Shown in pieces: positions 25,882-64,000 of a stretch of 64,000 bases of DNA (position 1 is the first letter of the stretch; each line of letters starts with the position of its first letter). The notes beneath the pieces are model-generated. The model made no database searches. It was given only the letters and a program-made list of their open reading frames with translations, and was not told the origin of the DNA. Source of the stretch: an uncultured Gammaproteobacteria bacterium (GTDB lineage Bacteria; Patescibacteriota; Patescibacteriia; SBBC01; CAIJZX01); the NCBI GenBank assembly GCA_964397195.1, contig CAYNGY010000002.1, forward strand, positions 116,012-180,011, in the 5' to 3' direction. The position numbers and the translations under genes are program-made.

Positions 25882-25954
25882 GGTGGTGGTTTGGCCGTGC
25901 GTTGACAGGACACCTTTTTTCTGCTAGAGTCGCGTGTTATTCTACATACATCGC

Positions 25955-32010: not shown

Positions 32011-32021
32011 GCGTTGTCCGT

Positions 32022-32603
32022 CTATGACTTCAGACATTCCTCTAGCAGTTCGGGAAATTCGACAGTGCCTAAGTCACTAAGACAAAAATGTCCTTTATTG
32101 GCAAACTCTTGATAGGTCGCCTGATCAATGTTTTCTCGAATGAGATCAATTGTTTTTAGAACACTTTCATCATCATTTTTTGAGTAAAACACAGAAACAC
32201 CGCCGGTTCGTGAAACGAGATCTCGATCTATTGAAAAGTTAAAGAAATCCGCTGTGTCAGAGTGAGGGTTATTGGAAGGGTTGGTCCAGGGTGCAACGAG
32301 AACCACCTTACCGACGCGAAGATCTTTATGTTCGCTGAGGTATCGGAGTAAAAAACCACCACCACAGCTATGACCGACTAGCATTGTTTCGGGGGTCAAT
32401 TCAAAGCGCTCCAATTCTTTCTTCCATAGAGCATAGCGCGGTTGCCATGGTGTTGGAATTTCCAGTGCGACAGTAAAAATATCCTTGAGCATCAGTTGCT
32501 TCGAAAGCCAAGGAAACCAATGATCATTGCTATTTGTTGGACGTACCGGATCGTAGTATTCTTCTCGATCAGGTCGTCCGGGAATTAGTATCGTGTTTCT
32601 CAT
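32022..32603 (-). CDS. alpha/beta hydrolase of the YdeN/RBBP9-like serine hydrolase type
   Basis: ILIPGRPD...NDHWFPWL at the N-terminus and the nucleophile motif LVGHSCGGG. The start was trimmed to the ATG at 32603. Confidence 0.6.
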   Translation of the reverse strand: MRNTILIPGRPDREEYYDPVRPTNSNDHWFPWLSKQLMLKDIFTVALEIPTPWQPRYALWKKELERFELTPETMLVGHSCGGGFLLRYLSEHKDLRVGKVVLVAPWTNPSNNPHSDTADFFNFSIDRDLVSRTGGVSVFYSKNDDESVLKTIDLIRENIDQATYQEFANKGHFCLSDLGTVEFPELLEECLKS

Positions 32604-32812
32604 AGACTTGAATAATATTGGTGGCCGGTCGATTTCACACAACGTCCGCGGATATGAGAAGTTGCTGCTTCGTTTCGGCGGTACAATTCTACCACCGCCG
32701 GGGCGAAGCAGCAATTTGCACGTAGGAAATTGGGTTGGGTTTCTTCTTGTGACATCTTGATGTTTAGACAACACCCGACAGTTTCCTGCCGGGTGCTTTG
32801 GAGCATTCTTGT

Positions 32813-33442
32813 TTATGCGCTGGTCTGAATGAGCAGGGAATCCGCCTCTTCCGGCCTCGGCTCTTCGAACCGTGGCTGCTGGATCTGCCGATAGAGATCC
32901 ACCCAGGCGGCCGGACGCCCACGCTGACGGAGCTGATCATCGGCTCGTTGTAGCCGCTCGAGCAACCTGACTTCTTGGCATTGGATCCAGACGATTTCCG
33001 TCTGGTATCCATATTGCTTGGCTAGCTTGAGCCGCTCGACTCGTTCCTTGCGCACGAGGTTGCAGGAATCATTGACGACATTCACGCCTTGTTGGAAGGC
33101 GGCGGCTAGAACAACTTGCCGTACCTTTTGCGTCAGCCACTGCCGTGGCCAGTAGGCTGGTCCAGTGACCGTCCTGTCGTCGTTGAGCCAGGGAAAAGCA
33201 GCGTTTAGTCGAACGTGAATCTGATCAGTGCTGAGTTGGAAGAATCGTGCCCTCACCGAATCGTGTTCCAGCCAGTAGTTCTTGCCTGACTTGGAATACC
33301 CGACCATCGCTACGAACTTTCGTTCTCGCGGGTACTCATCCCATGCCTTGATGAAACCGGAAACAACGGTCTTCAGCCGAGACCTATTTTCAGGGACGAG
33401 TAGCTTGATCTCCGTCAGCAAAACGGCAAAGAGCTTTCGCAT
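32813..33442 (-). CDS. P-loop kinase (AAA_33/zeta-toxin-like), cassette-borne paralog of 19014..19676
   Basis: Walker A VGYSKSGKNYW plus DSCNL, IVWIQ and RFEEP, the same motif order as the chromosomal copy. Confidence 0.6.
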   Translation of the reverse strand: MRKLFAVLLTEIKLLVPENRSRLKTVVSGFIKAWDEYPRERKFVAMVGYSKSGKNYWLEHDSVRARFFQLSTDQIHVRLNAAFPWLNDDRTVTGPAYWPRQWLTQKVRQVVLAAAFQQGVNVVNDSCNLVRKERVERLKLAKQYGYQTEIVWIQCQEVRLLERLQRADDQLRQRGRPAAWVDLYRQIQQPRFEEPRPEEADSLLIQTSA

Positions 33443-33542
33443 GTCGACCTCTTTCGTGGGTACGTATACAGCGTGCCGTGCTACTCTACACTTTTTTTTA
33501 AAAAAGTCAAGTCCCTTTGCATGAACGGCGGTGTGACTAGGG

Positions 33543-33592
33543 GTAACGAAAAACCAACCCCGATTTCCTCCGTCTCCTATCCGCTGTTAGAC
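33543..33592. repeat. degenerate attC-like remnant (GGTAACG...GCTGTTAGAC)
   Basis: A short element with TAACG at the left and CCGCTGTTAGAC at the right, directly abutting attC-like site B. This could be an empty cassette. Confidence 0.25.
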
Positions 33593-33615
33593 GATGCGGT
33601 GCGCAGCGGAGTTTC

Positions 33616-33692
33616 GACTAACGTTTGCGTCTCATCCGCGGCGGACCCTGAGCGAAGTCGAAGAGGCAGTGGCGGATAGACGCTGTTAAGTG
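33616..33692. repeat. attC-like site B (77 bp; CGACTAACGTTTGCG...GCTGTTAAGT)
   Basis: Nearly identical to repeat A over CTAACGTTTGCG.CTCAT.CGCGGCGGACCCTGAGCGAAGTCGAAGAGG.AGTGGCGGATAGACGCTGTTA. Confidence 0.55.
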
Positions 33693-33809
33693 ATGTAAAC
33701 TTCTATCTTCGTTTTTCTGTACAAATTATGTTTATTGTTTAGGAAAGTATTATTTCTGTTTCAGGAAAAGTGAGAGTGGCTGGGAGTAAATCGTTTTTGT
33801 CATTATTCC

Positions 33810-34550
33810 TTATTTGGGCTTTACTGCTTTAATCCATAATGCCATCGGAGTAGTTTGTCTATATGCTAAATCAGAATATTTCCTTGCTAGTTTTACCGAT
33901 GGTTTTGGTTCTGTTATTTCTGAAATGTAAAAACCAGCTTGCGTTAAAGAGTTTGCTAAATCGGATAATGTCCAATGGTAGTCTTGATACAGAGTTTCTT
34001 TGCCATCAAGTCGTCTTGAAACTATTTGTATAACGCTTCCGCTTGAAAAATAGTTGTACTCAACTGGTGTTCTGATATTATCAGGTTTTGAAGATGGGGC
34101 GAAGGGATGTATTTCGCTTATGATGATAATGCCAGATTTTTTGAGCAGGGCAAAAGCATCTGTCATGATTTTATTTATTTTCTTTATTGATGTAATCTCC
34201 AAAAGTACGTGTTCAAGTAGAACAAAATCAAATGAATTATTTTGTAGACCTAGTTGTTCTAATTTTGTGATATCGCCTTGAACGTATGTAGTTTTCGGAT
34301 TGCTTTTGTTGGCGAGTTCAAGTTGTTTTTTTTCTATCTCCACGCCCGTGCCGATGGCGCCACGTTTTGAAAGTAAATCAAGCCAATAACCATTGCCACT
34401 GCCAAGCTCGAGTACTTTTTTATTTTTTACATTGCCGAACATTCGAAGTAGTTCTGGCTCACCAATGTATTTTTTACCAAAGTTTGGAGTGTAAGCACTC
34501 TTGGCTTGTTTTTCAGTCCACTCGTGTTTTTTTAGATGGTTGCTTGTCAT
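33810..34550 (-). CDS. class I SAM-dependent methyltransferase (AT-rich cassette gene)
   Basis: Motif I VLELGSGNGYW. GC is well below the flanking DNA. Confidence 0.7.
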   Translation of the reverse strand: MTSNHLKKHEWTEKQAKSAYTPNFGKKYIGEPELLRMFGNVKNKKVLELGSGNGYWLDLLSKRGAIGTGVEIEKKQLELANKSNPKTTYVQGDITKLEQLGLQNNSFDFVLLEHVLLEITSIKKINKIMTDAFALLKKSGIIIISEIHPFAPSSKPDNIRTPVEYNYFSSGSVIQIVSRRLDGKETLYQDYHWTLSDLANSLTQAGFYISEITEPKPSVKLARKYSDLAYRQTTPMALWIKAVKPK

Positions 34551-34662
34551 AATATATACCTAGTTATTCCTTGCTCACCCTACATCGATTATTAAAGTAA
34601 TATTTTCCGTGGCTTTTAATATCACTGATGTTTTATATATGTACTAAGATAAAAGTTTATTT

Positions 34663-34728
34663 CACTTAACGTTTGCGTCTCATCCGCGGCGAAGCGTAGC
34701 GGAGTGGCGGATAGACGCCGTTAGGCGC
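34663..34728. repeat. attC-like site C (66 bp; ACTTAAC...GTTAGGC)
   Basis: CACTTAACGTTTGCGTCTCATCCGCGGCGAAGCGTAGCGGAGTGGCGGATAGACGCCGTTAGGCGCC. It has the conserved ends, a different shorter middle, and the classic GTTAGGC core. Confidence 0.55.
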
Positions 34729-34742
34729 CGTAATAATAGGTG

Positions 34743-35093
34743 CTATAAGGCTATAGATTCTTTTTTTGAGAATTTGGCACCTAAGCAATCCCAACCCTTT
34801 GTTACCATTTTACAACTTGTGGTGGGAAAGTCCGACTCCCTTTCCTTATTTGTCGGATAGATGATCCCAGCACACCATCCAGAGGTCTCATTAACATAGA
34901 TGATTGATGGAATACCCAGATCCTCAATAAAAAATTGATTTGTATTCAATGCTGGGGAATTTATGTTTCGCGCGACAGCGTCATTTCTATCACAAGACTT
35001 TACATTTGTTGATAGAGAGTAGGGTTTTGGGATTGTAAAAAACAACATCGTCAGGGTAAGAACTATGATAGTGACAGTAGTTGTTTTTTTCAT
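34743..35093 (-). CDS. small secreted protein (signal peptide, 4 Cys), cassette gene
   Basis: 116 aa, MKKTTTVTIIVLTLTMLFF... The start codon lies 8 nt from attC-like site D. Confidence 0.45.
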   Translation of the reverse strand: MKKTTTVTIIVLTLTMLFFTIPKPYSLSTNVKSCDRNDAVARNINSPALNTNQFFIEDLGIPSIIYVNETSGWCAGIIYPTNKERESDFPTTSCKMVTKGWDCLGAKFSKKESIAL

Positions 35094-35100
35094 ATTATGG

Positions 35101-35158
35101 CGCCTAACGTTTGCGACTATACGAAGTACTCGTTATTTCGAATAGTCGCTGTTAGGAG
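35101..35158. repeat. attC-like site D (58 bp; GCCTAAC...GTTAGGA)
   Basis: GCGCCTAACGTTTGCGACTATACGAAGTACTCGTTATTTCGAATAGTCGCTGTTAGGAGC. It has the conserved ends, a distinct internal palindrome GCGACTAT...ATAGTCGC, and the classic inverse core GCCTAAC. Confidence 0.55.
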
Positions 35159-35184
35159 CTGTCGAATATTTTTCAATGTTGGGG

Positions 35185-35601
35185 TTAATAAACATACCAG
35201 CCAGACCCATTACATAAAATCTGTTGTTGTGAAAATGGTATTCCAAAGAATGTATATCCGGTAACCCGTGCCTGATACGGCTTGCTCATTGGCGTGATCT
35301 TTTCATCACCACCAATCATGATGCCAGCACAACGCTGCGCTGTATCTTTTACATCGTCATATCCCGTGTCGTTTGGTGTTAGTTCTTTAATCCAGGCTAC
35401 GCGTCGACGAATTTCGAGACCGTGCTGGATAGGATTCCCGTGGTAACTTGATTCAATGAGCGCATAACGAGCGAATTCTCTCTGATCACCTGTGTATGAC
35501 TTTGCGTTATCGCCAGTGAGCAAGGGAATACCAAGGGCGGCTACAATTCCTACGATAACAAACAACCAGATTGTCTGTGTTCTATTGAATTTCATATACA
35601 T
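35185..35601 (-). CDS. small secreted protein (signal peptide), cassette gene
   Basis: 138 aa, MYMKFNRTQTIWLFVIVGIVAALG... AT-rich. Confidence 0.45.
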   Translation of the reverse strand: MYMKFNRTQTIWLFVIVGIVAALGIPLLTGDNAKSYTGDQREFARYALIESSYHGNPIQHGLEIRRRVAWIKELTPNDTGYDDVKDTAQRCAGIMIGGDEKITPMSKPYQARVTGYTFFGIPFSQQQILCNGSGWYVY

Positions 35602-35837
35602 CTAGGAAAAATATTCGATTGCTCCTAACTCGTTATTATGCGAACTCTGGGGATTGGATACGCCAAGTATCTCACCATTAATCAAGTTTTGCCAGTCTTC
35701 TGGTAGACGTGTTTCGTAGAGATTCAGGGGGGGGCAAAATGACCTGGTCATTTTCGGGTAAGGGCCGCGCTCCTCGATCCCGCTTCGTACGACAAGCCCA
35801 GCCCTTCGATGGGTTTTGTGGGCGGATGAATTTTTCT

Positions 35838-35914
35838 TGGTACCGGGGGGCGGGATCGAACCGCCGACCTCGGGCTTATGAGTCCCGCGCTCTAACCAAC
35901 TGAGCTACCCCGGC
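35838..35914 (-). tRNA. tRNA-Met (anticodon CAT; elongator type, tRNA-Ile2 not excluded)
   Basis: RC reads GCCGGGGTAGCTCAGTTGGTTAGAGCGCGGGACTCATAAGCCCGAGGTCGGCGGTTCGATCCCGCCCCCCGGTACCA. Cloverleaf with D-arm TAGCTCAGTTGGTTAGAGC, anticodon loop CTCATAA, T-loop TTCGATC and an encoded CCA. Confidence 0.8.
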
Positions 35915-36057
35915 AAGATGTTGTATTGTGTTTGTTTTAGTGGGCCTTTTTTATTGTTTCTACCTAGGTTCCGGGGCGTGTCTGTTCCTGCGGAACATGG
36001 ACCCGCCCGTCTCGCCCCGCGAAAACAGAAGCAGTTCTGTTTTCTTGTGGGCTCGAC

Positions 36058-39973: not shown

Positions 39974-40048
39974 TGGTTGCGGGGGTGGGAATTGAACCCA
40001 CTACCTGCGGATTATGAGCCCGCCATGCAGCCGTTACACTTCCCCGCG
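39974..40048 (-). tRNA. initiator tRNA-fMet (CAT)
   Basis: RC reads CGCGGGGAAGTGTAACGGCTGCATGGCGGGCTCATAATCCGCAGGTAGTGGGTTCAATTCCCACCCCCGCAACCA. C1-A72 mismatch, G-C-rich anticodon stem, and the same ends as E. coli tRNA-fMet (CGCGGGG...CCCCGCAACCA). Confidence 0.75.
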
Positions 40049-40070: not shown

Positions 40071-40766
40071 CTATTTTGGCAAGTCCGCTGTTTCCGCGCT
40101 GGCCGCGTCGACCAAGTGCTCTAGGTCGTTGATGACTATGGTCGTCAACGATTCCGTGATGATATCCGGCTGTTGTTGAAGGTCTTGTCGGGCGTGTGGG
40201 CCAAGTCCGAGCGTATGCATTCCGGCTGCCTTCGCTGCGCACACGCCGGCTAAACCATCTTCGATGACGATACATCGATTCGGCCTGACCCCGAGATGTT
40301 CGGCGGCGGCGAGATATCCTTCGGGGTCTGGTTTCCCGCGCCGAACGTCATCCGCGCCGATGATGATTTGGACATAATGGTCGATGCCGAGCAGTTTCAA
40401 AATCGTTTCGACGGCGGTGTGACGCGAGGCTGAAACCACGGCGATTGACCAGCCGTGCCGAGCGCCACTCAACAAGAGCTCCCGACCGCCGGGGATGGCA
40501 TCAGCGCGACGGGGGAGTTGGCGCAAAAACTCCTCCCATTTTTCAGTAATGGCATGTTGAATGTCGAGCGGTTGGCCATGTTCATCGGCGAGCGTCGAGA
40601 ACCATTCTTCGTTTTTGACCCCCGAAAAGCGGCGCGAAATTTCTTGGGGCTCAATCGTAATCCCATGTCGGGCCAAAACGGTTGATTCGACTTCCGCGTG
40701 TAAAGACTGGGTGTCGGAGAGGACACCATCGAGGTCGAAGAGAAGCGCGCGACCGGAAGAAGACAT
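40071..40766 (-). CDS. HAD-superfamily hydrolase, subfamily IA (beta-phosphoglucomutase-like)
   Basis: Motif I LLFDLDGVLSDT and motif IV GADDV. The start was trimmed to the ATG at 40766, because the track ORF runs through tRNA-Leu. Confidence 0.75.
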   Translation of the reverse strand: MSSSGRALLFDLDGVLSDTQSLHAEVESTVLARHGITIEPQEISRRFSGVKNEEWFSTLADEHGQPLDIQHAITEKWEEFLRQLPRRADAIPGGRELLLSGARHGWSIAVVSASRHTAVETILKLLGIDHYVQIIIGADDVRRGKPDPEGYLAAAEHLGVRPNRCIVIEDGLAGVCAAKAAGMHTLGLGPHARQDLQQQPDIITESLTTIVINDLEHLVDAASAETADLPK

Positions 40767-40784
40767 GTGATGATAATAGGTGTT

Positions 40785-40870
40785 TGGTGCCGGAGAAGGG
40801 AGTCGAACCCTTAATCCCTTACGGGAACGCGATTTTGAGTCGCGCGCGTATGCCATTCCGCCACTCCGGC
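40785..40870 (-). tRNA. tRNA-Leu (anticodon CAA)
   Basis: RC reads GCCGGAGTGGCGGAATGGCATACGCGCGCGACTCAAAATCGCGTTCCCGTAAGGGATTAAGGGTTCGACTCCCTTCTCCGGCACCA. Long variable arm, anticodon loop CTCAAAA. Confidence 0.8.
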
Positions 40871-40961
40871 GTCGCGCCACTGAGTAAAGCATGGACAGAA
40901 AAACTGGTCAACGGCTATTTTGCGACCGAGGGTAAAAAATGGTATACTCAGCGGGCTTTTT

Positions 40962-52695: not shown

Positions 52696-53223
52696 TTATT
52701 CCTTTTTCAGCGTCAGTTCGAGGAGGGAAGCGGTCTTTTGAATCGCGTCCTGTATGATTGGTATTTCCGATGCCGAGAACGGTTGGAGGACGTACGTTTC
52801 GGCCGGGAGCTGGACGTCGTGGTTGTTCCCGATCCCGATTCGGATCCGGCGGAACGCCTGAGTCCCTAGGGCGTCGATGATTGATTGGATACCTTGATGA
52901 CCACCGGCTGACCGGTCGAATTGCTCACGGACTTCGCCGAGAGGAAAATCAAGGTCGTCGTGGACAACGATTATTTGGTGACCGTCAGTATCAAGCAGGT
53001 GTCGGTAGGCGAGCCACGCTCGTACTGCCGGACCAGACTCGTTCATAAATAACCACGGCTCAACCAGCAGATGACCTTTATATGTCGCGACCGAAACGTT
53101 TTTTTCTTTTTTCCACTTCTCGCAACTCAGATCGTGGGCCAGACGATTCAAGACCATAAACCCAATATTATGTCGTGTGCCCTCGTATGATTTACCAGGA
53201 TTCCCGAGGCCAATAATGATCAT
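52696..53223 (-). CDS. pth: peptidyl-tRNA hydrolase
   Basis: MIIIGLGNPGKSYEGTRHNIGF. Confidence 0.9.
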   Translation of the reverse strand: MIIIGLGNPGKSYEGTRHNIGFMVLNRLAHDLSCEKWKKEKNVSVATYKGHLLVEPWLFMNESGPAVRAWLAYRHLLDTDGHQIIVVHDDLDFPLGEVREQFDRSAGGHQGIQSIIDALGTQAFRRIRIGIGNNHDVQLPAETYVLQPFSASEIPIIQDAIQKTASLLELTLKKE

Positions 53224-54914
53224 GGCGTCGTATTGGTATTGATGGTGGAGTCGGTCGCAGTGTTGGTTGTGGTCGTGTTGGTATTAACCGGCGCGTTCAC
53301 GTTGGCCGGTGCATTCACATTACTGTTGGATGTAGTGTTCGTGTTTTTGTTGGTAGTCTTCGAATTTGTATTTTTACTGGTGTTCGTGTTTTTGGATGTA
53401 TTCGTATTTGTACTGCGTGGGGTGACCGTAAAGATCGATTTTGCTGGATTTGGTTGGTCAAGTCCGAGAATGAGGATGATTTTCGGGAGAACGGTTTTCG
53501 AGTTGGTCGTTGCGGGTTCGAGGAACTGCATGATTGAGGTATCACCAGTGGCTTCGGCAAAAACGCTCGGTGAAACAACACGATCGGTGTGTGCATAGGC
53601 TTTGAGAATGGCGATGGTGTTCGGATTTGCGCCGGCGGTCGTATCGATAATGATGGATTTTCCAATCGTGGTGGTCCCGGTTTTAATCGGGAGTGTGTCG
53701 ACGCCGAAGCCGGTAAGCCCCTGATCAAAAGCGGTCGCAACGGCACTGCGTTTCGAGCGATTGAGAATTAAAACCGGAGCGGCTTCTTTCTTGGTCCCCG
53801 CCGCTTCGAAAATGTGGTTGGCGAGGAATTTAACATCCTCGTACGTTCCGGAACGAGGAATAAGAATGTAGGCGCCGCCGCTGCCCGTGGCGGATCGCAA
53901 GAGATTACCGGTTGAGTCATCGAGGACCCAATTAATCATGCCCGGCGCGTCGGCATCCTTGACGATGTTGGCGAGGCGAACCATTTCCCAGACCTCCATA
54001 TTGGTTTGGCTGTGCGTCCCGAGGGCCTGAATGAGGTCGGTAATCTTCACGGGATTAATGAGCGTGCCGATGGATAGTGCCTTCTCACGGATGGCGAGGA
54101 GAATCTTCTGTTGTCTGGCGGCACGGGCAAAATCGGACCCCTCGCCGTTATTCCCATGCCGGGAGCGAGCGAACTTGAGGGCCATATCGCCGTTCATTGT
54201 CTGCGTTCCGGTCTTGAAGCGGAGGGTTTGATAGCCGTAGTTTTCTGTCGGGTAGGAGATATCGGTGAAGGCACGATCGACGGTGACGGTGATGCCGCCA
54301 AGGCGATCGATGATGTCAACAAAGCCATTGAAATCAACGCGGGCGTAATACTGGATCGGAATATTCAACGTGTCGCTCACAACTTTGACGGCAAGGGCTT
54401 CGCCACCACCCGGAAACTTCTGGTCGCGTCCGATGGAGAGGACGCTGTTGATTTTGCGGTAATCGTAGCCGGGAATATTTACTACCAAATCTCGTGGGAT
54501 AGAAAGCATTGCGACTTTTTTGGTGGCGGTCTCATAACTCAGGACAATCATGGTGTCGGTGAGGTACGGGCCGTCGTGTCCGGGTCCGCCGATGCCCATC
54601 AAAAGGACATTGACGCGGCCATCGGCCTCACCCTGAAGTTTCTTGTCTCCCGCCGTGACCAAGCGGGTAATTTGTTGGATCAGTCCAACGCGGCTGTTCG
54701 AATTATCGAGTTTTTGGGTATTGACCGCGGCGATGGCGCGAATGAAAACATACCCAGCCACACCGGCAATGACCAGCAGGACGGTCAGGGAGATCAGGAG
54801 TGGCCGTCGCCAACGACGAACAGGCCGCGCCGGTCGGACAATTTCAGGACGGATGGGGGTAGTTGATTCAACCGGAGTCGGTGAAACCGGCGTATGAGGG
54901 AGTTGCTTGGCCAT
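53220..54914 (-). CDS. LytR-CpsA-Psr (LCP) family protein with Thr/Asn-rich C-terminal tail
   Basis: N-terminal TM helix, the LCP core VNVLLMGIGG...LSIPRDLVVNIPGYDYRKIN, and a C-terminal low-complexity TNTNTSKNTNT tail. Confidence 0.8.
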   Translation of the reverse strand: MAKQLPHTPVSPTPVESTTPIRPEIVRPARPVRRWRRPLLISLTVLLVIAGVAGYVFIRAIAAVNTQKLDNSNSRVGLIQQITRLVTAGDKKLQGEADGRVNVLLMGIGGPGHDGPYLTDTMIVLSYETATKKVAMLSIPRDLVVNIPGYDYRKINSVLSIGRDQKFPGGGEALAVKVVSDTLNIPIQYYARVDFNGFVDIIDRLGGITVTVDRAFTDISYPTENYGYQTLRFKTGTQTMNGDMALKFARSRHGNNGEGSDFARAARQQKILLAIREKALSIGTLINPVKITDLIQALGTHSQTNMEVWEMVRLANIVKDADAPGMINWVLDDSTGNLLRSATGSGGAYILIPRSGTYEDVKFLANHIFEAAGTKKEAAPVLILNRSKRSAVATAFDQGLTGFGVDTLPIKTGTTTIGKSIIIDTTAGANPNTIAILKAYAHTDRVVSPSVFAEATGDTSIMQFLEPATTNSKTVLPKIILILGLDQPNPAKSIFTVTPRSTNTNTSKNTNTSKNTNSKTTNKNTNTTSNSNVNAPANVNAPVNTNTTTTNTATDSTINTNTTP

Positions 54915-55074
54915 TTCTTCCTAGGCAGTATATCCGACGAATGCGTTCGTCGCAATTCAGGAAGGCCATTTTGTGTCCGTCATGGCCGGGAGCAACTTTT
55001 TCTCGGTGTTGGGGTTGGTAAGTGGGGCCAAAAACAGGCCGAACCTTAGCGAAAAACCCGTGACTGACCAATTT

Positions 55075-55102
55075 TGACTTTTCGTATCATTTTCAGTACA
55101 AT
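55075..55102 (+). promoter_or_regulatory. sigma70-like promoter TTGACT-N16-TACAAT
   Basis: It lies about 16 nt upstream of the ATG at 55119 that opens the giant ORF, implying a very short leader. Confidence 0.45.
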
Positions 55103-55118
55103 ATTTTTATCTAATCCG

Positions 55119-58100
55119 ATGCTAAAAGCAAAAAGAATACTGTTGAAATACGACTTTCGATTCCCTGGTCACGAATTGGTCAGGAATTTTTCGTTTTTGG
55201 GGTATTTCGGAACAAAAAAGCGTGACCTTTCGAAGTATCCGAAGTTGTTGACGATTAGCCAGACAGCTAGGATTCTGAATGTGCACCCAAATACGCTCCG
55301 ACTTTGGGATGACCAGGGTCGTTTACGAGCGGTTCGGTTGGGAACACGGCGAGATCGGCGATATGAACAGGCGGCGGTGGCGACGATGTTGGCGAGCCGA
55401 CCGGAATCTCACCTCAGTCTCGTTCGGCGGCGGTGGGCGGAGCGTGTTTTACATCATCGTCTCCTGGTGCAACGTGCGGCGTACGTCACGGCAGCGATTC
55501 TTCTTTTTGCTTGGGGCGGAGCAAGCTTGCAGTCTGCGCTGGCTGATCAGCCGCAGCCGGTGACCGTCCTGATGGCGCCGCAGACCTGCCAGGGATGGTC
55601 AAATGCGCGTGGTGCAATCGGAATTGACGTTGGAGAAGGTAGCGCGCTCGAGAGCTTCACGAGCCGAAATTCGGCGATCTATGATGCGCAGCGATATCAA
55701 GTACGTTCCAACGATGGGGCAGTCGCGACCGGCTCGCTTGATGGTGCGGGTGGTGACATCACTTGTACCCACTTCTCATCGGCCGATCTACCGGCCGGCG
55801 CAACGATTACCTCGGCGTCCGTTCTCGTATCGATGGCGAGTCGTCTTGATGGGAATACGAGCGCTAGTTTTTCTCTCCAAACGAGTGAGGATGGTGCCCA
55901 TTGGACGACCGTTCAGGTCTTACCGGTTTCAGCTGAGGGTGACCGTCGGCAGATCGTAGCGTTGCCGAAGGTTGACGGGAAGACGGTGGCCAACATGGCC
56001 GTGCGCATTGTCCCCGATATTGAGCTAGGGGCGGCCGCGTTTACCACTTGGCTGGATGCTGTCCAGCTCCAGGTGACGGCGACACCACTGGCGAGCTCAA
56101 CGCCGCGGCAGGACGCAAAAGCGCGTCAGGAGCTCAATAAATTAGTGTCTTTTTCCAAGGAAATCTACAAGACTGATGAACATCCGGTGGTCCGAATTCC
56201 GAAATCACACCCGCGGAAATTCATGTTTATCACTACCGGCCAAACGACATGGGGTTTAGTTGATGTCCAATTGGCTGATAGTAGTCAGCGGACATATCCG
56301 GTTGACTATCATGAGCGGGACATTCAAGACGGAACGACGGTCGATACTGACCTGTTGATCAACCCGAAAGACCTGCACCCGGGGAAGTATAAAATCAAGG
56401 TGACGATGCGCAGTTCGGATGGCGGATCGTCGATGGTGGAGAAGGACTTTTTCTGGGGAGTGGTGGCCTTAAACTTTGATCGGGCGGCACCTCAGCAAAA
56501 CGATCGGGAGCGAGTCGGGATGGGTATTCTTGATGATACTGGGCGAACAATTTGTGATGCCGAGGTGACGGTTCAGGTTCGCGATCCGCGCGGCCATACG
56601 ACGACCTATCGGACCAGCAAACGGTCTATCACCAAGAACCCGAATTGTATTGATAAAGGGATTACCAATGAACCGGACTACCACTTTGATTTCACCGTTC
56701 GCCTGGCCGGAACATACCATGTGACACTCCGGGCGAAGACGGACGTTGGTGAGCGGGTCTATGAAGACAATCTTTTTGTGACGAAAGCGTTGCCGTTTGA
56801 TGTTGAACGGAGCGATTACCCGACGCGGATTAACCCGTATGCGGCGTACCCGGTGCGGATCGCCGTGACACCGAGTCGTGACTACGCCGGACCGGTCTAC
56901 GAACGCGTCCCGGCCGACTTTAAGATTTTGAATCTCCAGCCGGAGGCGAAGATTCAGGATGATCCGGCACACCCGGGGATGAAGCGCATCTATTGGCAGG
57001 TCGAATGGAAACGAAACACGACCTACTACCTGTCGTATCGGTTTGTTGCGCCTCCGATTTCGCCGGCGCTCTTCATGACCGGACCGCTTTCGATCGGCGG
57101 GAATGATTTACTCGGCGCTGATTTTATTGAGCCACGACAATGGCAAATCGCTTCCGACTCGATCAGTTCTATTTCTTGGGACGGAAGTGCGAGCAACTTG
57201 TGGTCAAATCCGGCTAACTGGTCGACCAACGTGATTCCGCAAGCAGGTGATAATCTTGTTTTTCCGGCGGGCGCGGCTAACTATTCGAATCAAAACGATC
57301 TGGGTGAAAACTATTGGTTTAACTCCATTACGTTTTACGATTCTGGGTACACACTGAGCGGGAATACGATCATCATGGGCCAGGGGCAAACCACAAACGC
57401 GGTTATTCTGCCTGGTATAACCGATGCCGTCTCAAGTGGCGGAAATACCATTTCTCTGCCCATCCGTCTCGATGCGACGCGTCTCATTACCGTAACGAAT
57501 AGTAGCGAAACGTTAACGATCAGTGGTGCAATTACCGGCGTTGGCGGTCTCTCAAAAGAGGGATTAGGTGATCTCGTTCTGTCCGGGGGAAATACGTATG
57601 GTGGTGTGACGAAGGTGAATGGCGGCGTCTTGAGCGCACGAAACAATACCGCTCTGGGAACGATTGCGCTCGGAACCGAAGTTGTTGGCGAGGCCGCGCT
57701 TGAACTAGAGGGGACGATTGCGATCGGACGTGAGGCGTTGACCTTGCGATCATACGGTCAATCGAATGGTGGCGCGCTTCGAAACGTCCAGAACAACAAT
57801 AGTTTTGACGGACTCATCACGATTGCCGGGACAACCGAGATTGCCTCTGATTCTGGCACGCTGACCCTTAATGGCGGTGTGACCGGAACGTTCAACCTCA
57901 ACCTCGATGGTAGTGGGAATATTTCCTTTGCCAAGGCGCCGATTGCCATTTCGACCGGGCTGCTAACAAAAAACGGCGGCGGGACGACGACCTTCAACTT
58001 TCCGAATACGTATACCGGCGTCACGACCGTCAATGCCGGGACGTTGCTCTACGGGTGCGATAATGCGATTCTGTCCGGTAACATTGTAGTTAATGGCGGG

Positions 58101-61100
58101 ACGCTTGATGTCGCAACGTTCTCGGATATGGTCGGCGCGGTGACGCTTGGGACATTAGCTGGTGGCAGTGCCACGATTACCGGAAGTACGGGCGTATTGA
58201 GCGGTACGTTCGTCGTCTATGCCGGAACAATCAGCGCAATTATCGCTGGTGATGGGACGACGCTGACGAAGCAAACTCCGGGCACTGTCACGTTGACTCG
58301 CGCTAACCAATTTACGGGTGCAGTCACGCTCTCCGTCGGGATTCTTAAAATTCAGGATAATCTTAGCCTGGGGACTACTGACGGTGTTACGACGCTCACA
58401 TCGGGCGCGACGTTGCAAATTGACGGCAACGGACTTTCCGTACCGGAACTCATCTCCGTAGCTGGTTTAGGTCTCAATAATGTCGGTGCGCTCGTCAATT
58501 CGGGCGGAGATAACACCATCACCGGCTTGATAACCATGACGGCGGCTACGACGATTGAATCGGCGGCCAGTACGACCCTGACTATTTCCAATAGCGGCGT
58601 AACCGGCGCCTTTGGGTTAACTGTTGATGGTGATGGTGACACTGTCATTTCGGCGCCAATCAATACTAGTGGCGGGACTCTGACCAAGGATGGTTCTGGC
58701 AACTTAACATTGAGCGCCTACAATCCGTATACGGGTGCGACGGTCATTAACTATGGAAATTTGAGGCTGAACGGTAACGGTACGATCACCACGTCCGCAT
58801 CAATCGACATCAGATCTGGATCCAAGCTGATACTTGATAATTCGTCGACCGTGGCCGACCGCATCGGTGACGCCATTGGTGTCACCATGAACGGCGGAGA
58901 TATGGAATTTTATGGCAACACCAGCACGAGCACCATGGCTACCGCGGGAACGCTCACGTTGAATAGTGGGCAGAATACCATTTCTGTTTTCGCGGCCACG
59001 GGCGGTCCGACCATCCTCCGCTTTGGTTCGTTAGTCCGGACGACTCCTGGAGCTACGGGGTTGTTCCGCGGTACAAGTCTCGGCGCGACGCCAGCTGCGA
59101 ACGTGGCGACACTGTTATTTACGACGGCGCCAACCTTGCTTGGGGACGATGGAGCATCCAATACACCCACCCTCAGCATCATCCCAGGCATTTTCGGCGA
59201 CAACTCAACGGCCGGGACCGGGACGGACATGGTGACCTATGGCCGCGGGAATAACAACGGCGTCCGGTTATTGAACGGCGCTGGGTTTAGTGGTGAGTAC
59301 ACGACCGACCTGACCATGACGAATGCGAATATCAAACTCACAGCCGGTACGGCAGCGGTAACGACGCAAATCAATTCGCTCATCCTTGGTTCAGGCGCGA
59401 GTATCACCAACCCCGGATCTGCGCAGACGATGACGTTTATGTCCGGGAACATTTTGAACCTCCAATCGAGCGGCTCGATTGCTGGAGCAAATACGACCCT
59501 AGCTGGTGGTACGCTTGAATTCATTATCAGGACCCCCCAAGATCTCGACATTTCGGCACTGATTACCACAACCGGCGGGTTGAGTAAGAGTGGATCCGGC
59601 ACGCTGACCTTTTCGAGCTCTAAAACCTACACTGGGTTGACGAGTATTAACGCCGGGACGTTGCTCTATGGAGCCCATAACGCCCTTAGTAATGGCGCCG
59701 TGACCATCAACGATGCAACACTCAATATCGATATTTATAGTGATACCGTCGGGGCCGTGATCGTCCAAGGGGGGACGATTACCGGTGATACCGGTGTTTT
59801 AACGGCGACGTCGTATGATTTTCGCGCGTCGACCGCCAGCGCGTATTTAGACGGGTCTGGTACGCTGACTGTCAGCAATACGAATGAGCGGGTTGACGCC
59901 ACCTCGACCTTCACGAGAGACAATCCATATACGGGGGCAATTTCGGTCGCTTCCGGCGTCCTGAAACTCGGTGCTGACGGTGGTGGCACGAACACACCGC
60001 TGGGGACAACCGCCGCTGGCACGACGGTTTCGAATGGTGCGATGCTTGATTTGAATGGCCATACTCTCGGGATTGCCGAGGCCCTAAACTTCCGAGGAAC
60101 GGGTATTGCCGGTCAAGGCGCGATCATCAACAGCAACGCTTCGGCGGTGACCTACAGCGGTGCTTTAACGATCAGCACCTCGGGACGTATTGGCGCCGAT
60201 TACGGCAAAATTACCATCACGGGCAGTATTTCTGGGACTGGCTTACCGCTGACGGTCGGAGGCTTTGGGGATATTGATATTTCTGGCGCTATCAGTACTG
60301 GTACCTCAGGTTCCGTTACGAAAGATGGTTTTGGAACCTACACACCGTCGAACGGGAACTCGACCTATACCGGCGCAACAACCATCAGCGCTGGCAAGTT
60401 GAAGTTGGGAGCGGCTTCGGTTGGCGGTACAAACTCTCCCTTGGGTACAGCGGGCGGTGCAACCGCCGTCACCGCCGGTGCAACCCTTGATCTGAACGGC
60501 TACACGCTGGGAATAGCTGAAGCGATTACGAACCTGAATGGTGTTGGTGGCGGGAGTGGTGATTTCGCCCCCGGCGCACTGATTAATAGCTCAGGTACGC
60601 CGGTCACCTTTACCGGGACGATTACGATTGCGGCGGGGACGATGATTCGGGCCGATTCTGGGGCGATGACGTTGAGCGCTATTTCGGGTACGAACGCCGC
60701 ACTGATCCTCGCCGGAAACGGCGGCGGAACGGTGGGCGGTGTGATCGGGACTGGTACTGGGACGCTCTCAAAACTCGATAGTGGCACATGGAATCTGGCC
60801 GGGTCGAGCACCTATACCGGCGCGACATTCATTTACCAGGGCACAATCCAGCTCGGCGCGACCGGTGGGGCAGCCAATACTCCCCTTGGGACGACCGGTA
60901 CGGGGACAACCGTGTATAGCGGTGGCGTACTTGATTTAAATGGTTTTACACTCGGGACGCTTGAGGCGTTTACATTAAACGGATTTGGTATTGCCGACGG
61001 CGGTTGCGTGGTCAACAGCTCTGGTAACCCGAATTTTTCCGGCAACCGGACACTGGGCTCCGATATTCGGGTCACGAATACGAGCGGCAGCGCACTTATT

Positions 61101-64000
61101 TGGTCCGGCACGAGCACAGGCGTCTTCGAAACCCGGGTCGGTGGCTCCGGGGATCACACGTTGCAAGGCGTTTGGGCTGCGGCCGCGGCGACGGTGTGGA
61201 AGGATGGCGCCGGAATAGCGACGGTCAACGCGGCGCAAGGGTGGACAGGAAATACGACGGTCATTGCCGGAACATTCCGGGACGGCGCCTTAAACGGGCT
61301 ATCGTCCGGAAACGTGGTTGTGGCTGGTGGGACGTTTGATCTTTCATCAAACAATGCTGATTCGGTTGGCGCAGTAGTCCTCGTTGATGGGACCATTTCG
61401 ACGACCGGTGGAGCGAGTGCGATTTTAACCGGGACAGCATACACCATCGAAAGTGGAACCATCAGCGGCGTGATTACTGGCGCCGTCGCGATGACCAAGA
61501 ACACTGCTGGTACGGCGGCAATTACGGCAGCGATTACTACTTCCAGCACGCTGACGATTAATGCGGGGACACTGACGTTTAGTGGGAACGGAGCGGCGAC
61601 CACTGTCACAGGGGCTACCATCAACCTTGGTGGGACATTGACGCTTGATAACTCGGGGACGAACGTTGGCGATCGGCTGAGCGGAAGTGGGAATAACATT
61701 GTGGTGACGATGAATGGCGGGAATTTCAATTTGATCGGCAAGGATTCAACGACGGTCACGGAGTCTATCGGCCAGCTCGCCTTCGCCGCCGGACATAATG
61801 TCGTGACGGTCGATCCGAAAGCCGGCAGTGGCGGTTCGGGAACAACCCTGACGGTCACGAATGCCACCTGTTTTAATCGGACGGTTGGGGCAACGGTGTT
61901 ATTCCGTGGGACGAGCTTCGGCTCAACCCCGGCCGCTGGAGTGTCGTCGTTGCTGTGTTCTGGGGGCGCGCCGACATTAACCGGAGCCAACGGTGGTTCG
62001 AACAATAGCGCGATTAGCATCTTGAAAGGTGCCTTTGGTGATAACTCCGTCACCGGTACTGGCACAGATATGGTGACGTATAACCAAGGTGATACCACCG
62101 GCCTGCGGTTACTCAACGGTGCCGGTCACACCGGAGAGTATGCGACAAACTTCGGCACAAATAACGCAAATGTAAAAATAACCGGTAACACTGCGGCCGC
62201 CACACAAAATGTAAATTCGTTGATTGTCAACGGCGGTGACGTGACGAACCCGGGTAGTGCCCAAACAATTACCACGGCTGGTGGGAGCTTAGCGGGGAAC
62301 GTCTTAATTGCATCGGCGAATACTATCGCCGGTGCGAATACGACATTTGCTTTCTCGAATGGTGTCGAAGCCTGTCTGCTGGCGAATGCGCCTACCACAA
62401 TATCAGCTAGCCTAGGAAATACGACGTCAAGTAATGTAACTTTCAGTGGCAGCGGCAACATTACTATAAGCGCGGCAAACACCTATACCGGTACTACCTT
62501 TATTAATTCCGCGACCTTAACTGAAGGTACGACGGACGCGATGTACACTGGTCCGGTGACTCTTGTGGGTGGGACCTTTGATACCAACGGAAATACTGAC
62601 TCGATAGGTGGTATCACCATGACGGCTGGAGTTGTTAAATCAGATTCATCCACCTTAACGACGACGGGAACCTTCGCGACCATTGCCAACGCCAATCTTT
62701 CCGCCAAGGTGACCGGAACCGTGGCGTTGCCCGCCTCTTCGACGTTGAACATTGCCGACGGGTTGGTTGAGGATGATGCCGTGATTTCGGCGGTGCTCAC
62801 GAGCGCCAACACGTCATTATCGAAAAGCACCGGTACCGGTGTCGTCGTGTTCAGCGGAAACAATACGTATACCGGGCCGACCACCATTAACGCTGGGACC
62901 ATTAAATATGGAACAACCGGGAATGCAACGAACGGTCCCCTCGGGACGTCAGCTGGCGCAACGACGGTGGCGAATGGGGCGGCGCTTGATCTGAATGGAT
63001 ATTCCCCAAACCCGGTAGATGCGCTGACCATCAGTGGCGCTGGTCTCAATACGAAAGGCGCACTCTTGAACACGTCCTCGACGGCAGTCACTTATAGCGC
63101 ATTATTGTCCATGGGTGCCGCCGCGACGATCCAGTCCGATTACGGCGACATCAATATCTCGAATACCGGAACCATTACTGGTACAAATACTAACTTGACC
63201 TTGCGTGGCGCCGGGAACGGCACGTTATCAAGTATTCTCGGCACTGGGTCCGGAACGCAGGTAAAAAATGATATGGGGACCTGGACCGTTTCCGGAAATG
63301 GAACATTTACCGGCGTGACGACGATCACGCTCGGCGTCCTAAAACTCGGGGCGGCGGGGAATGTAACCAATACGCCGTTCGGCACGAGTGCCGGTGGCGT
63401 CACGGTCGCGGCCACCGCCATGCTTGATCTGAACGGGCTGACGCTCGGTACGGCCGAAGCGTTAACTATCGCCGGAACCGGATTAGCGAACGCCGGCGCG
63501 TTGACCACGAGTGCCTCGGGCTCGACGAGTTATTCCGGAGCAGTGACACTTGGCGCGACGCCGCGGGTAACAAATTACGGGAGCGGCACATTTACGATTA
63601 GCGGTGCAATTTCTGGGAACAATGCGTTAACTGTCGTCAGCGCACCGGGGACGATCACAATTGGAACTGGCGTGTGGTCCGGTTCGGGGTCACTCGTGAA
63701 AGAAGGTTGGGGCACGACGATTATATCCGGTCAGAACACGATGACCGGGGCGATGACGGTCAGTACCGGGACTCTCCAGCTCGGGGCGAGCGGTGGTGGA
63801 ACGAACTCTCCGGTTGGGACAAATGCGGGTGGGGTCTCGGTATCAGCCGGCGCGGTATTTGATACCAGTACATTCCAAATTAATAATGCGGGTGCGGGCT
63901 CGAATGAGGGTTTGACCCTGAACGGTTCAGGTCTTAAGAATGCTGGTGCCTTGATTACCAACTCTGGCTCGACGATCACCTTTAGTACCATCGCGCTCGG
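55119..64000 (+). CDS. giant surface protein with PATR (autotransporter-associated beta-strand) repeats, 3'-partial; N-terminal excisionase-type HTH, then TM/signal anchor
   Basis: Open frame (codon positions = 0 mod 3) with no stop from 55068 to the window end, over 2,950 codons. It is absent from the ORF track because it has no stop. The N-terminus LLTISQTARILNVHPNTLRLWDDQGRLRAVRLGTRRDRRY is an HTH_17/MerR-excisionase-like fold. The second in-frame ATG at 55386 gives a signal-peptide-like RRRWAERVLHHRLLVQRAAYVTAAILLFAWGGASLQSALA/DQ. From about 57950 come dozens of N(T/P)YTGxTxINAGTLxLG...GATLDLNG repeats. Confidence 0.7.
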   Translation, partial: MLKAKRILLKYDFRFPGHELVRNFSFLGYFGTKKRDLSKYPKLLTISQTARILNVHPNTLRLWDDQGRLRAVRLGTRRDRRYEQAAVATMLASRPESHLSLVRRRWAERVLHHRLLVQRAAYVTAAILLFAWGGASLQSALADQPQPVTVLMAPQTCQGWSNARGAIGIDVGEGSALESFTSRNSAIYDAQRYQVRSNDGAVATGSLDGAGGDITCTHFSSADLPAGATITSASVLVSMASRLDGNTSASFSLQTSEDGAHWTTVQVLPVSAEGDRRQIVALPKVDGKTVANMAVRIVPDIELGAAAFTTWLDAVQLQVTATPLASSTPRQDAKARQELNKLVSFSKEIYKTDEHPVVRIPKSHPRKFMFITTGQTTWGLVDVQLADSSQRTYPVDYHERDIQDGTTVDTDLLINPKDLHPGKYKIKVTMRSSDGGSSMVEKDFFWGVVALNFDRAAPQQNDRERVGMGILDDTGRTICDAEVTVQVRDPRGHTTTYRTSKRSITKNPNCIDKGITNEPDYHFDFTVRLAGTYHVTLRAKTDVGERVYEDNLFVTKALPFDVERSDYPTRINPYAAYPVRIAVTPSRDYAGPVYERVPADFKILNLQPEAKIQDDPAHPGMKRIYWQVEWKRNTTYYLSYRFVAPPISPALFMTGPLSIGGNDLLGADFIEPRQWQIASDSISSISWDGSASNLWSNPANWSTNVIPQAGDNLVFPAGAANYSNQNDLGENYWFNSITFYDSGYTLSGNTIIMGQGQTTNAVILPGITDAVSSGGNTISLPIRLDATRLITVTNSSETLTISGAITGVGGLSKEGLGDLVLSGGNTYGGVTKVNGGVLSARNNTALGTIALGTEVVGEAALELEGTIAIGREALTLRSYGQSNGGALRNVQNNNSFDGLITIAGTTEIASDSGTLTLNGGVTGTFNLNLDGSGNISFAKAPIAISTGLLTKNGGGTTTFNFPNTYTGVTTVNAGTLLYGCDNAILSGNIVVNGGTLDVATFSDMVGAVTLGTLAGGSATITGSTGVLSGTFVVYAGTISAIIAGDGTTLTKQTPGTVTLTRANQFTGAVTLSVGILKIQDNLSLGTTDGVTTLTSGATLQIDGNGLSVPELISVAGLGLNNVGALVNSGGDNTITGLITMTAATTIESAASTTLTISNSGVTGAFGLTVDGDGDTVISAPINTSGGTLTKDGSGNLTLSAYNPYTGATVINYGNLRLNGNGTITTSASIDIRSGSKLILDNSSTVADRIGDAIGVTMNGGDMEFYGNTSTSTMATAGTLTLNSGQNTISVFAATGGPTILRFGSLVRTTPGATGLFRGTSLGATPAANVATLLFTTAPTLLGDDGASNTPTLSIIPGIFGDNSTAGTGTDMVTYGRGNNNGVRLLNGAGFSGEYTTDLTMTNANIKLTAGTAAVTTQINSLILGSGASITNPGSAQTMTFMSGNILNLQSSGSIAGANTTLAGGTLEFIIRTPQDLDISALITTTGGLSKSGSGTLTFSSSKTYTGLTSINAGTLLYGAHNALSNGAVTINDATLNIDIYSDTVGAVIVQGGTITGDTGVLTATSYDFRASTASAYLDGSGTLTVSNTNERVDATSTFTRDNPYTGAISVASGVLKLGADGGGTNTPLGTTAAGTTVSNGAMLDLNGHTLGIAEALNFRGTGIAGQGAIINSNASAVTYSGALTISTSGRIGADYGKITITGSISGTGLPLTVGGFGDIDISGAISTGTSGSVTKDGFGTYTPSNGNSTYTGATTISAGKLKLGAASVGGTNSPLGTAGGATAVTAGATLDLNGYTLGIAEAITNLNGVGGGSGDFAPGALINSSGTPVTFTGTITIAAGTMIRADSGAMTLSAISGTNAALILAGNGGGTVGGVIGTGTGTLSKLDSGTWNLAGSSTYTGATFIYQGTIQLGATGGAANTPLGTTGTGTTVYSGGVLDLNGFTLGTLEAFTLNGFGIADGGCVVNSSGNPNFSGNRTLGSDIRVTNTSGSALIWSGTSTGVFETRVGGSGDHTLQGVWAAAAATVWKDGAGIATVNAAQGWTGNTTVIAGTFRDGALNGLSSGNVVVAGGTFDLSSNNADSVGAVVLVDGTISTTGGASAILTGTAYTIESGTISGVITGAVAMTKNTAGTAAITAAITTSSTLTINAGTLTFSGNGAATTVTGATINLGGTLTLDNSGTNVGDRLSGSGNNIVVTMNGGNFNLIGKDSTTVTESIGQLAFAAGHNVVTVDPKAGSGGSGTTLTVTNATCFNRTVGATVLFRGTSFGSTPAAGVSSLLCSGGAPTLTGANGGSNNSAISILKGAFGDNSVTGTGTDMVTYNQGDTTGLRLLNGAGHTGEYATNFGTNNANVKITGNTAAATQNVNSLIVNGGDVTNPGSAQTITTAGGSLAGNVLIASANTIAGANTTFAFSNGVEACLLANAPTTISASLGNTTSSNVTFSGSGNITISAANTYTGTTFINSATLTEGTTDAMYTGPVTLVGGTFDTNGNTDSIGGITMTAGVVKSDSSTLTTTGTFATIANANLSAKVTGTVALPASSTLNIADGLVEDDAVISAVLTSANTSLSKSTGTGVVVFSGNNTYTGPTTINAGTIKYGTTGNATNGPLGTSAGATTVANGAALDLNGYSPNPVDALTISGAGLNTKGALLNTSSTAVTYSALLSMGAAATIQSDYGDINISNTGTITGTNTNLTLRGAGNGTLSSILGTGSGTQVKNDMGTWTVSGNGTFTGVTTITLGVLKLGAAGNVTNTPFGTSAGGVTVAATAMLDLNGLTLGTAEALTIAGTGLANAGALTTSASGSTSYSGAVTLGATPRVTNYGSGTFTISGAISGNNALTVVSAPGTITIGTGVWSGSGSLVKEGWGTTIISGQNTMTGAMTVSTGTLQLGASGGGTNSPVGTNAGGVSVSAGAVFDTSTFQINNAGAGSNEGLTLNGSGLKNAGALITNSGSTITFSTIAL

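Follow-up and report, generated by a model that had tools for sequence, protein, structure and literature searches.

In-frame fusion of a MerR-like helix-turn-helix domain to a giant PATR-repeat adhesin in Patescibacteria suggests a coupling of export to gene control

The window analysed here is a stretch of 64,000 nucleotides (nt) from a contig of an uncultured bacterium of the Patescibacteriota (CAYNGY010000002.1, positions 116,012 to 180,011). Its last part carries, on the plus strand, the beginning of a giant gene whose product joins a helix-turn-helix (HTH) DNA-binding domain via a hydrophobic segment to the ectodomain of an adhesin with PATR repeats. The fusion is genuine: it lies in a single frame and recurs in at least 25 related protein clusters. 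Judged from its sequence, the gene encodes a giant Sec-exported surface adhesin, in which a predicted n-region of about 120 amino acids (aa) holds a folded winged HTH of the BldC/Xis type. Each part has its precedents, namely the MerR-like HTH, the Sec signal, adhesin modules of PATR and Ig-like type and regulators tethered to the membrane; their combination, with an HTH in the signal-peptide n-region of a giant adhesin, kept in many lineages of the CPR (candidate phyla radiation) together with a motif near the promoter, was not found in the searchable literature or in the giant-gene preprint, the coverage being incomplete. CPR bacteria, or Patescibacteria, are ultra-small, and their mechanisms of regulation and attachment are largely unknown. 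The conserved layout suggests an undescribed coupling of adhesin export to gene control, and we tentatively propose, as its best explanation, export-coupled autoregulation by a membrane-tethered HTH stub.

The fused frame and its relatives

An earlier note on this DNA, made from its letters and a list of its open reading frames (ORFs), had claimed one plus-strand frame open from 55068 to the window end. The frame, which begins directly after the TGA at 55065-55067, indeed runs to 64000 with zero stops in 2,977 codons. As the note had remarked, it is missing from the ORF list; the only reason is that the list leaves out ORFs that run off the window. The listed minus-strand ORFs at 56469-63991 had been taken for antisense shadows of the giant frame; the largest of them match no family and are therefore best read in this way.

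For the detection of homologues, a word-index protein search returned a single true homologue (P0001, 42% identity) with HTH, hydrophobic segment and ectodomain in frame, and a scan of species-representative genomes returned a complete ORF of 2,319 aa with the same layout in a metagenome-assembled genome (MAG) of Candidatus Kerfeldbacteria (L002); MAGs of this group are the nearest named sources of homologues. A scan of metagenomes for relatives by protein patterns found none. Exhaustive HMMER searching with aa 1-677 as the query yielded 2,761 homologues at E ≤ 1e-3; of the matches listed, most cover only the C-terminal ~260-350 aa of the ectodomain module. Among the 151 best representatives, each standing for a cluster at 50% identity, 25 have the motif H.NT[LIVM]R.W at aa 28-65, with a basic linker and a hydrophobic segment behind it, all inside the first 180 aa; fragments aside, the 25 HTH-type representatives are 2,251-6,677 aa long. 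The same uninterrupted HTH-hydrophobic-ectodomain frame is present in 12 other loci examined, and the fusion is kept at protein identities of 24-45%. The earlier note had put forward this in-frame fusion of HTH, membrane segment and giant PATR adhesin, and had named a stop codon between HTH and hydrophobic segment in related genomes, or the lack of an HTH fold, as findings that would speak against it. Since the homologous loci have no such stop and the fold is present, the fusion stands. In L001 (2487-3103), the contig enters unrelated AT-rich DNA after a truncated homologue; L001 is perhaps chimerically assembled, or the homologue a truncated paralogue.

Domain structure, start codon and ectodomain

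The winged HTH spans aa 41-95 (55239-55403, plus strand; residues are counted from ATG 55119) and falls into the BldC / phage Xis / MerR-like class by Pfam, AlphaFold2 and Foldseek. Over aa 43-94, the Pfam families HTH_17 (PF12728, 32.1 bits, cut-off 27) and MerR_1 (PF13411, 31 bits, cut-off 21.6) were matched above their gathering cut-offs, and the short MerR model PF00376 scored 27.4 bits, just under its cut-off of 28.2. The N-terminal, HTH_17-like domain of excisionase/MerR type that the earlier note had read from the translation was thereby recovered in HMM searches, and equally in structure searches. In an AlphaFold2 model with the family alignment as input, pLDDT values of 94-98 were reached over aa 40-95, with the order strand-helix-helix-strand-strand-helix and then a single long helix (aa 96-142). 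The best Foldseek matches were BldC-DNA complexes (6amk and 6ama, target TM-score 0.83-0.89, 33-36% identity) and Xis of mycobacteriophage Pukovnik (4j2n, rmsd 1.4 Å, 39% identity), with classical MerR regulators next; the best chains superpose at an rmsd of 1.1-1.5 Å, and a sequence-profile search of solved structures gave the same ranking (BldC, Pukovnik Xis, then MerR). RacA (5i44), which anchors the chromosome, is a further neighbour, as are small subunits of phage terminases with their DNA-binding domains. Superposition on full-length MerR structures is poor (rmsd 5-18 Å), and the helix after the wing (aa 96-142) enters the membrane segment.

BldC and phage Xis thus have the fold and family of the window HTH in common (TM-score 0.83-0.89, 33-39% identity), including the DNA-contacting Trp and Arg-Arg. 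No effector domain was found in the HTH part of the window protein, which in this respect is like BldC. BldC and Xis are free proteins of ~60-70 aa, whereas the window HTH forms the N-terminus of an exported protein of several thousand residues and is followed by a membrane segment. As the scores against the NCBIfam models for BldC (NF033787, 28 bits, cut-off 77) and 'excise' (TIGR01764, 24.8, cut-off 28.8) fall below the cut-offs, its sequence places the window HTH on a separate branch of the MerR-like/HTH_17 group.

Alignment of the 25 N-termini points to the HTH as the most strongly conserved part of the protein: 13 of the 14 invariant columns fall within it (H56, N58, T59, R61, W63, D64, G67, L69, R73, G75, R77, D79 and R80), and the fourteenth, P41, stands immediately before it. 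BldC contacts DNA through W31 and through R47 and R48 of the wing, each of its protomers reading a 9-bp repeat (PMC5859096). These three residues align with the conserved W63, R80 and R81 of the window protein, and BldC K26 and T29 with the invariant N58 and R61; the base-reading R30 of BldC is not conserved in window-type HTHs. The nearest stand-alone relatives in a profile search with the N-terminal alignment were small HTH_17 proteins of CPR bacteria, some combined with Peptidase_S24 (P0171, P0172) and resembling LexA-type repressors, others tail-anchored HTH-membrane mini-proteins of 119-138 aa (P0156, P0158), so that this HTH also occurs by itself, both in repressor-type and in membrane-tethered form.

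The HTH continues into a basic helical linker (aa 96-119, 55404-55475, plus strand), which by its charge and the modelled helix takes the positive-inside side; Lys and Arg abound before the hydrophobic segment, which is followed by acidic residues. By inspection of its signal-peptide anatomy, the segment (55476-55544, plus strand) consists of an h-region with a hydrophobic core of ~16 aa and a polar c-region containing Gly and Ser, in the order ...HHRLLVQR, AAYVTAAILLFAWGGA, SLQSALA, predicted cut, DQPQP. The motif A140-L141-A142 (55536-55544) is of the A-x-A type and places the predicted signal peptidase I cut at A142|D143, with the Ala at -1 conserved in at least 90% of the 25 aligned sequences. 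A basic n-region, an h-region within 7-16 aa and small residues at -3 and -1 were recognized by inspection.

Forty-two family members were aligned on the motif 'P..C.GW' of the mature protein. In 20 of 21 HTH-type proteins, (A/V/I/L)-x-A lies 14-17 aa before the Cys of 'C.GW', P0004 being less clear, and their consensus is an h-region of 12-16 aa, a c-region rich in Ser, Gly and Pro, the (A/V/I/L)-x-A motif and then D/G/E/N/S/Q. HTH-less paralogues with ordinary short signal peptides have the same motif at the same distance (e.g. P0041, MKGRFRLLFVLSIVCIGLFSMGMVLA|AG). Because the segment matches these signal peptides in anatomy and in its distance to 'P..C.GW', it looks like the positional equivalent of a cleavable Sec signal peptide, with the HTH within the n-region. 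The earlier note had spoken of a signal anchor; the c-region, the A-x-A motif and the paralogue-equivalent position make a cleavable signal peptide more probable, and we lean towards the view that it is actually cut. An Arg-Arg pair stands 2-6 residues before the core in many orthologues (P0007, P0012, P0016, P0004, P0038, P0043; aa ~100-130) and is probably just positive-inside charge. A Tat signal was rejected for the window protein, which has Q-R and not RR before the h-region, since the export of a folded protein of ~6,000 aa via Tat is implausible.

For the start codon, a promoter scan found a sigma-70-type TTGACT-N17-TACAAT promoter at 55074-55102 on the plus strand, with 10 of 12 consensus positions and 16 nt between its end at 55102 and ATG 55119; the promoter reported in the earlier note is therefore present, with a spacer of 17 and not 16 nt. 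In the eight closer loci (the window and L001-L007), TTGAC(T/A)-N17-TAxAxT is followed by the aligned ATG 13-18 nt on, and no Shine-Dalgarno sequence was found between promoter and ATG. At the window ATG (55119-55121, plus strand) the leader would comprise ~6-11 nt. The N-terminal extension (aa 1-40, 55119-55238, plus strand) is basic, AT-rich and modelled with a pLDDT of 52-54; its ~40 AT-rich codons are stop-free in all loci and lead into a D(W/F)xxLPxLL motif before the HTH, which is also found in the small stand-alone HTH relatives. The N-termini encoded in the eight closer loci are all basic, of the form M-x-K-(R/K)-(K/Q). Because the distance from the -10 box to the ATG, the basic N-termini and the stop-free run into D(W/F)xxLPxLL are conserved, ATG 55119 is the best-supported start, on what would be an mRNA almost without a leader. 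No support was found for a start at ATG 55386 (M90), which the earlier note had considered as the alternative, M90 not being conserved in the 25-sequence alignment. The database gene call of L005 begins inside the -10 box (L005 3001-3031), with the aligned Met 30 nt downstream.

A terminator scan marked a terminator-like hairpin with T-run at 55164-55198 on the plus strand (hairpin of 8 bp at 55164-55184), within codons 16-27. In most orthologues, a run of T5-T7 is found at +63 to +69, frequently with a hairpin that ends 0-4 nt ahead of it, and the Phe-Phe encoded by it is TTT TTT in 5 of 5 loci, though TTT and TTC are used about equally in these genes. The folding energies of this early hairpin are not significant versus shuffled sequences. 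Hairpin and T-run could form a translation-coupled attenuator or a slippery T_TTT_TTT site.

Beyond the hydrophobic segment, more than 2,800 aa of β-sandwich and PATR β-helix follow. The N-terminal ectodomain module (aa 143-694, 55545-57200, plus strand) was modelled with AlphaFold2 as an all-β array of β-sandwiches with a pLDDT of 82. Its Foldseek matches are Ig-like domains of PrgB and MG domains of α2-macroglobulin and complement, and its Pfam matches, to F5/8-type-C (discoidin), PKD and WxLIP, are all weak, so that the model reads as weakly discoidin-like at first and then Ig/macroglobulin-like. The adjoining stalk (aa 695 to beyond 2960, 57201-64000, plus strand, 3'-truncated by the window) is a T/G/A/S-rich β-helix with PATR repeats. 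Pfam PATR (PF12951, cut-off 27) scored 44.7, 52.6 and 50.6 bits in the three downstream thirds, and 44.7, 52.6, 50.6 and 48.7 bits in separate segments, with 3-4 matched stretches each, in agreement with the PATR repeats seen in the earlier note. Other details of that description changed: the core motif [YFW]xGxTx[IVL]xxGx[LIFV] occurs in 12 copies at a spacing of ~100-150 aa, with two gaps of 300 and 434 aa, so that the clearest module is of ~145 aa instead of the ~60 aa given before, and PATR-type sequence starts near aa 827 (nt 57597), somewhat earlier than the ~57950 given.

The C-terminus of the giant gene was followed in orthologues. A conserved domain of ~170 aa ending in ...LT(V/Y)(V/I)(L/T)Txx-F is present in 7 of the 9 orthologue C-termini examined (P0003, P0004, P0007, P0008, P0011, P0014 and P0018) and is possibly the cell-wall or partner-binding anchor of the giant adhesin; for P0008, the one orthologue scanned, the last 300 aa matched no Pfam family even at E ≤ 1. 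Autotransporter PATR passengers are likewise giant β-helical adhesins with an extended signal-peptide n-region. Their extended signal region measures ~25 aa, as against a folded DNA-binding domain in the window protein, and type V autotransporters have a C-terminal β-barrel translocator, of which none was matched in the 300 C-terminal residues of P0008. The host lineage is reported to be without an outer membrane. The autotransporter reading was rejected on the grounds of the patescibacterial lineage and the lack of a Pfam β-barrel match in the P0008 C-terminus.

Candidate operators and export-coupled regulation

Upstream of the giant gene lies a divergent gene (53220-54914, minus strand) for an LCP (LytR-CpsA-Psr) glycopolymer transferase, identified with Pfam and NCBIfam, with which it shares its intergenic region. 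In the eight closer loci, this intergenic DNA is unalignable save for the promoter and two boxes. Box A, TTGGTAAGT (55015-55023, plus strand), is a conserved 9-mer and candidate operator ~90 nt upstream of the transcription start, which is predicted near 55109; box B, CTTAGCGAAAAA (55045-55056, plus strand), is an imperfect inverted copy of it 30 nt downstream, and its reverse complement, TGGCTAAG, resembles TGGTAAGT. The consensus of box B is CTTAGCC/GAAAA, the offset from A to B is exactly 30 nt in 7 of the 8 closer loci, and the boxes centre near -90 and -62 from the predicted transcription start.

The exact 8-mer TGGTAAGT occurs in 13 copies in the window and the 12 loci (~268 kb, both strands), 9 of which lie ≤150 nt upstream of start codons, in 8 of 13 HTH-type genes; the other 5 HTH-type loci have versions with one mismatch. 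Four of the five distant loci carry the exact 8-mer (L008, L009 in inverted orientation, L012 in two copies, and L013), and in distant loci the box stands ~10-15 nt after a different, extended -10 promoter. Upstream of the single HTH-less control locus, the paralogue L011, TGGTAAGT is absent. From this co-occurrence and the invariant recognition helix we infer that the TTGGTAAGT boxes are linked to the HTH. A metagenome scan for TTGGTAAGT-N22-TTAGCCAAA gave 32 matches, none adjoining an HTH ORF, and lends no support, as ~32 matches are roughly what chance would yield for an 18-base pattern. A hairpin or RNA element was rejected as a reading of the upstream boxes: RNAalifold gave no consensus pairs in the conserved upstream region and Rfam no match except a chance CRISPR-repeat at E=2.8, and the boxes are therefore treated as DNA sites. 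The box-B-like CTTAGCCAAAA was rejected as a regulon signal; in L003 and L004 it is found ahead of the gene that comes next, in L005-L007 it is not.

In the mechanism that we propose, translation would begin at ATG 55119 on the nearly leaderless mRNA, so that the HTH would emerge first and remain in the cytoplasm, and the hydrophobic segment would target the nascent chain to the Sec translocon, through which the ectodomain would be threaded out. Signal peptidase I would cut after A140-L141-A142 and free the N-terminal binding tip of the adhesin, which would be held on the cell surface by its conserved C-terminal domain. What remains would be a 142-aa stub of HTH and membrane segment, a membrane-tethered DNA-binding protein that would either stay tethered or be released by intramembrane proteolysis, and that would bind the TTGGTAAGT boxes in the shared control region of adhesin and LCP gene. 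The amount of regulator would thus track the number of adhesin molecules exported, which is the export-coupled autoregulation named at the outset, an explanation that we prefer tentatively and with some reserve. In a stricter form, which strikes us as rather unlikely, the signal peptide itself would be the transcription factor, with one BldC-like HTH fragment supplied per export event; such a stoichiometric 'secretion counter' would, through the signal peptidase cut and possible release by a site-2 protease, set the transcription of adhesin and LCP gene. To our knowledge, no secretion counter working via a signal-peptide transcription factor is known in bacteria. The MMTV Rem signal peptide and the enterococcal sex pheromones, which the site-2 protease Eep cuts from lipoprotein signal peptides, are cases in which a cleaved signal peptide is likewise a regulatory product; the likeness is one of analogy only, with no folded bacterial DNA-binding domain and no homology.

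Several points weigh against export-coupled autoregulation. Cleavage, DNA binding and expression are all predictions. Normal signal peptides come nowhere near an n-region of 120 aa that holds a folded domain, and N-termini of such length are usually uncleaved anchors. Among the window ORFs scanned there is no gene for a signal peptidase or site-2 protease, which would be expected elsewhere in the genome, and the C-terminus of the giant gene lies outside the window. The position of the TTGGTAAGT box varies, from -90 and -62 in closer loci to ~+10 in distant ones, with inversion in L009; it could serve the LCP gene or a regulator other than the HTH, and common descent may account for box A in the closer loci.

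If the segment were an uncleaved signal anchor, the whole protein would be a transmembrane one-component receptor like ToxR or CadC, in which binding or load at the ectodomain is relayed to the HTH or triggers a Notch-like or RsgI/RsiV-like proteolysis that releases it. The topology suits this: ToxR, CadC and TcpP have in common with the window protein a cytoplasmic N-terminal winged HTH, a single membrane segment and an extracytoplasmic C-terminal domain, and domain order and charge fit. Long structured n-regions are typical of type II anchors, contact sensing is plausible because CPR bacteria live attached to host cells, and the tail-anchored HTH mini-proteins of this group show that such a domain can remain tethered and yet be functional. 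RsgI, which has carbohydrate-binding modules outside the cell, and RsiV similarly join a cytoplasmic regulatory domain via one membrane segment to an external binding domain, and the site-1 cut of RsiV is made by signal peptidase, a possible first cut before intramembrane proteolysis in RsiV and window protein alike; both sequester a sigma factor and do not bind DNA, however, and the window protein is without an anti-sigma domain. ToxR, CadC and TcpP, for their part, have OmpR-type HTHs, small periplasmic sensors and uncleaved anchors, whereas the window protein has a MerR/Xis-type HTH, a giant adhesin outside and a segment that looks cleavable. Its core is short (12-16 aa), its polar c-region contains helix breakers, and the nearly invariant A-x-A is placed as in those paralogues whose signal peptides are of the ordinary, cleavable kind. 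Without a cut, moreover, the β-sandwich 'tip' would be held against the membrane while the C-terminal domain is presumably surface-attached as well, and we consider an uncleaved receptor, though the strongest of the rival readings, doubtful.

A role outside transcription, either as a RacA-like membrane tether of the nucleoid or of the gene's own locus, or as an export 'brake' or targeting extension without specific DNA binding, comparable to the extended signal region of large autotransporters, seems improbable to us. RacA and the terminase small subunits among the structural neighbours agree with it, as do the long basic n-regions that HTH-less paralogues also have, and giant exported proteins often carry unusual N-terminal signal extensions. 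It is opposed by the conservation of BldC DNA-contact residues in window-type HTHs, by the specific 9-mer TTGGTAAGT, which recurs near these genes only, and by the repressor-type HTH_17+S24 proteins among the closest relatives. That the fusion is spurious, the HTH being a separate or decayed gene and the adhesin starting at ATG 55386 or another internal codon, is hardly credible in view of the continuous frame in 13 loci including the window at 24-45% identity, the HTH as the best-conserved part, the non-conserved M90 and the conserved promoter-to-ATG distance; it could appeal to the first 40 codons, which are AT-rich and poorly conserved, and to P0010 and P0017, which begin inside or after the HTH, though these are probably truncated gene calls.

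The conserved family joins a giant surface protein to a DNA-binding domain via an export signal, and with it offers a testable link from export or host contact to expression; if export-coupled autoregulation holds, bacterial signal peptides can carry a folded transcription-factor domain. Work in vitro or with a surrogate host would suffice to test the predicted operator, the promoter and the 142-aa fragment, and no culture of the organism is needed for it.

Neighbouring genes and other features of the window

The divergent LCP neighbour is found in 10 of the 13 loci including the window (L003-L008, L010, L012 and L013). In L010, a glycosyltransferase gene lies between the LCP gene and the HTH-giant gene; in L009, the divergent LCP neighbour is not kept. 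The order in L003-L007 is Pth and LCP on the minus strand, the giant gene on the plus strand and then three conserved genes, with Mfd preceding Pth/LCP both in L007 and in the window; the orthologues in these syntenic loci measure 3,840-6,524 aa. The three downstream genes (e.g. L003 21358-24261) encode proteins of ~350 aa, without a family, of ~335 aa, with weak matches to WxLIP peptidoglycan-binding and Fn3-like domains, and of ~285 aa or more, with Big_6, Big_13 and dockerin, and the first of them has its own TTGAC-N17-TGnTATACT promoter. They hint at a locus for a WxL-like cell-surface complex, outside the window.

Elsewhere in the window, the stretch 32000-36000, possibly an acquired island, has a low GC content (0.42-0.48 versus ~0.55) and lies beside a tRNA-Met gene (35838-35914, minus strand); its products are a serine hydrolase, an AAA_33 kinase-like protein and a methyltransferase. 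A second tRNA-Met gene is found at 39978-40047, and a tRNA-Leu(CAA) gene (40785-40870) lies inside the 5' end of a 273-aa HAD-hydrolase ORF (40071-40892), the start of which is probably downstream of the tRNA, as the Pfam match begins at aa 48-50. Four ORFs at 20442-25881 had no Pfam match; at 25934-27424, a CAP-domain protein with Big_13 and Big_6 domains is encoded. A cell-envelope cluster at 229-10204 comprises two GT4 glycosyltransferases, a GHL15/FG-GAP protein, a NAGPA-like phosphodiester glycosidase and two Peptidase_C39-like proteins, one of them with a Big_5 domain.

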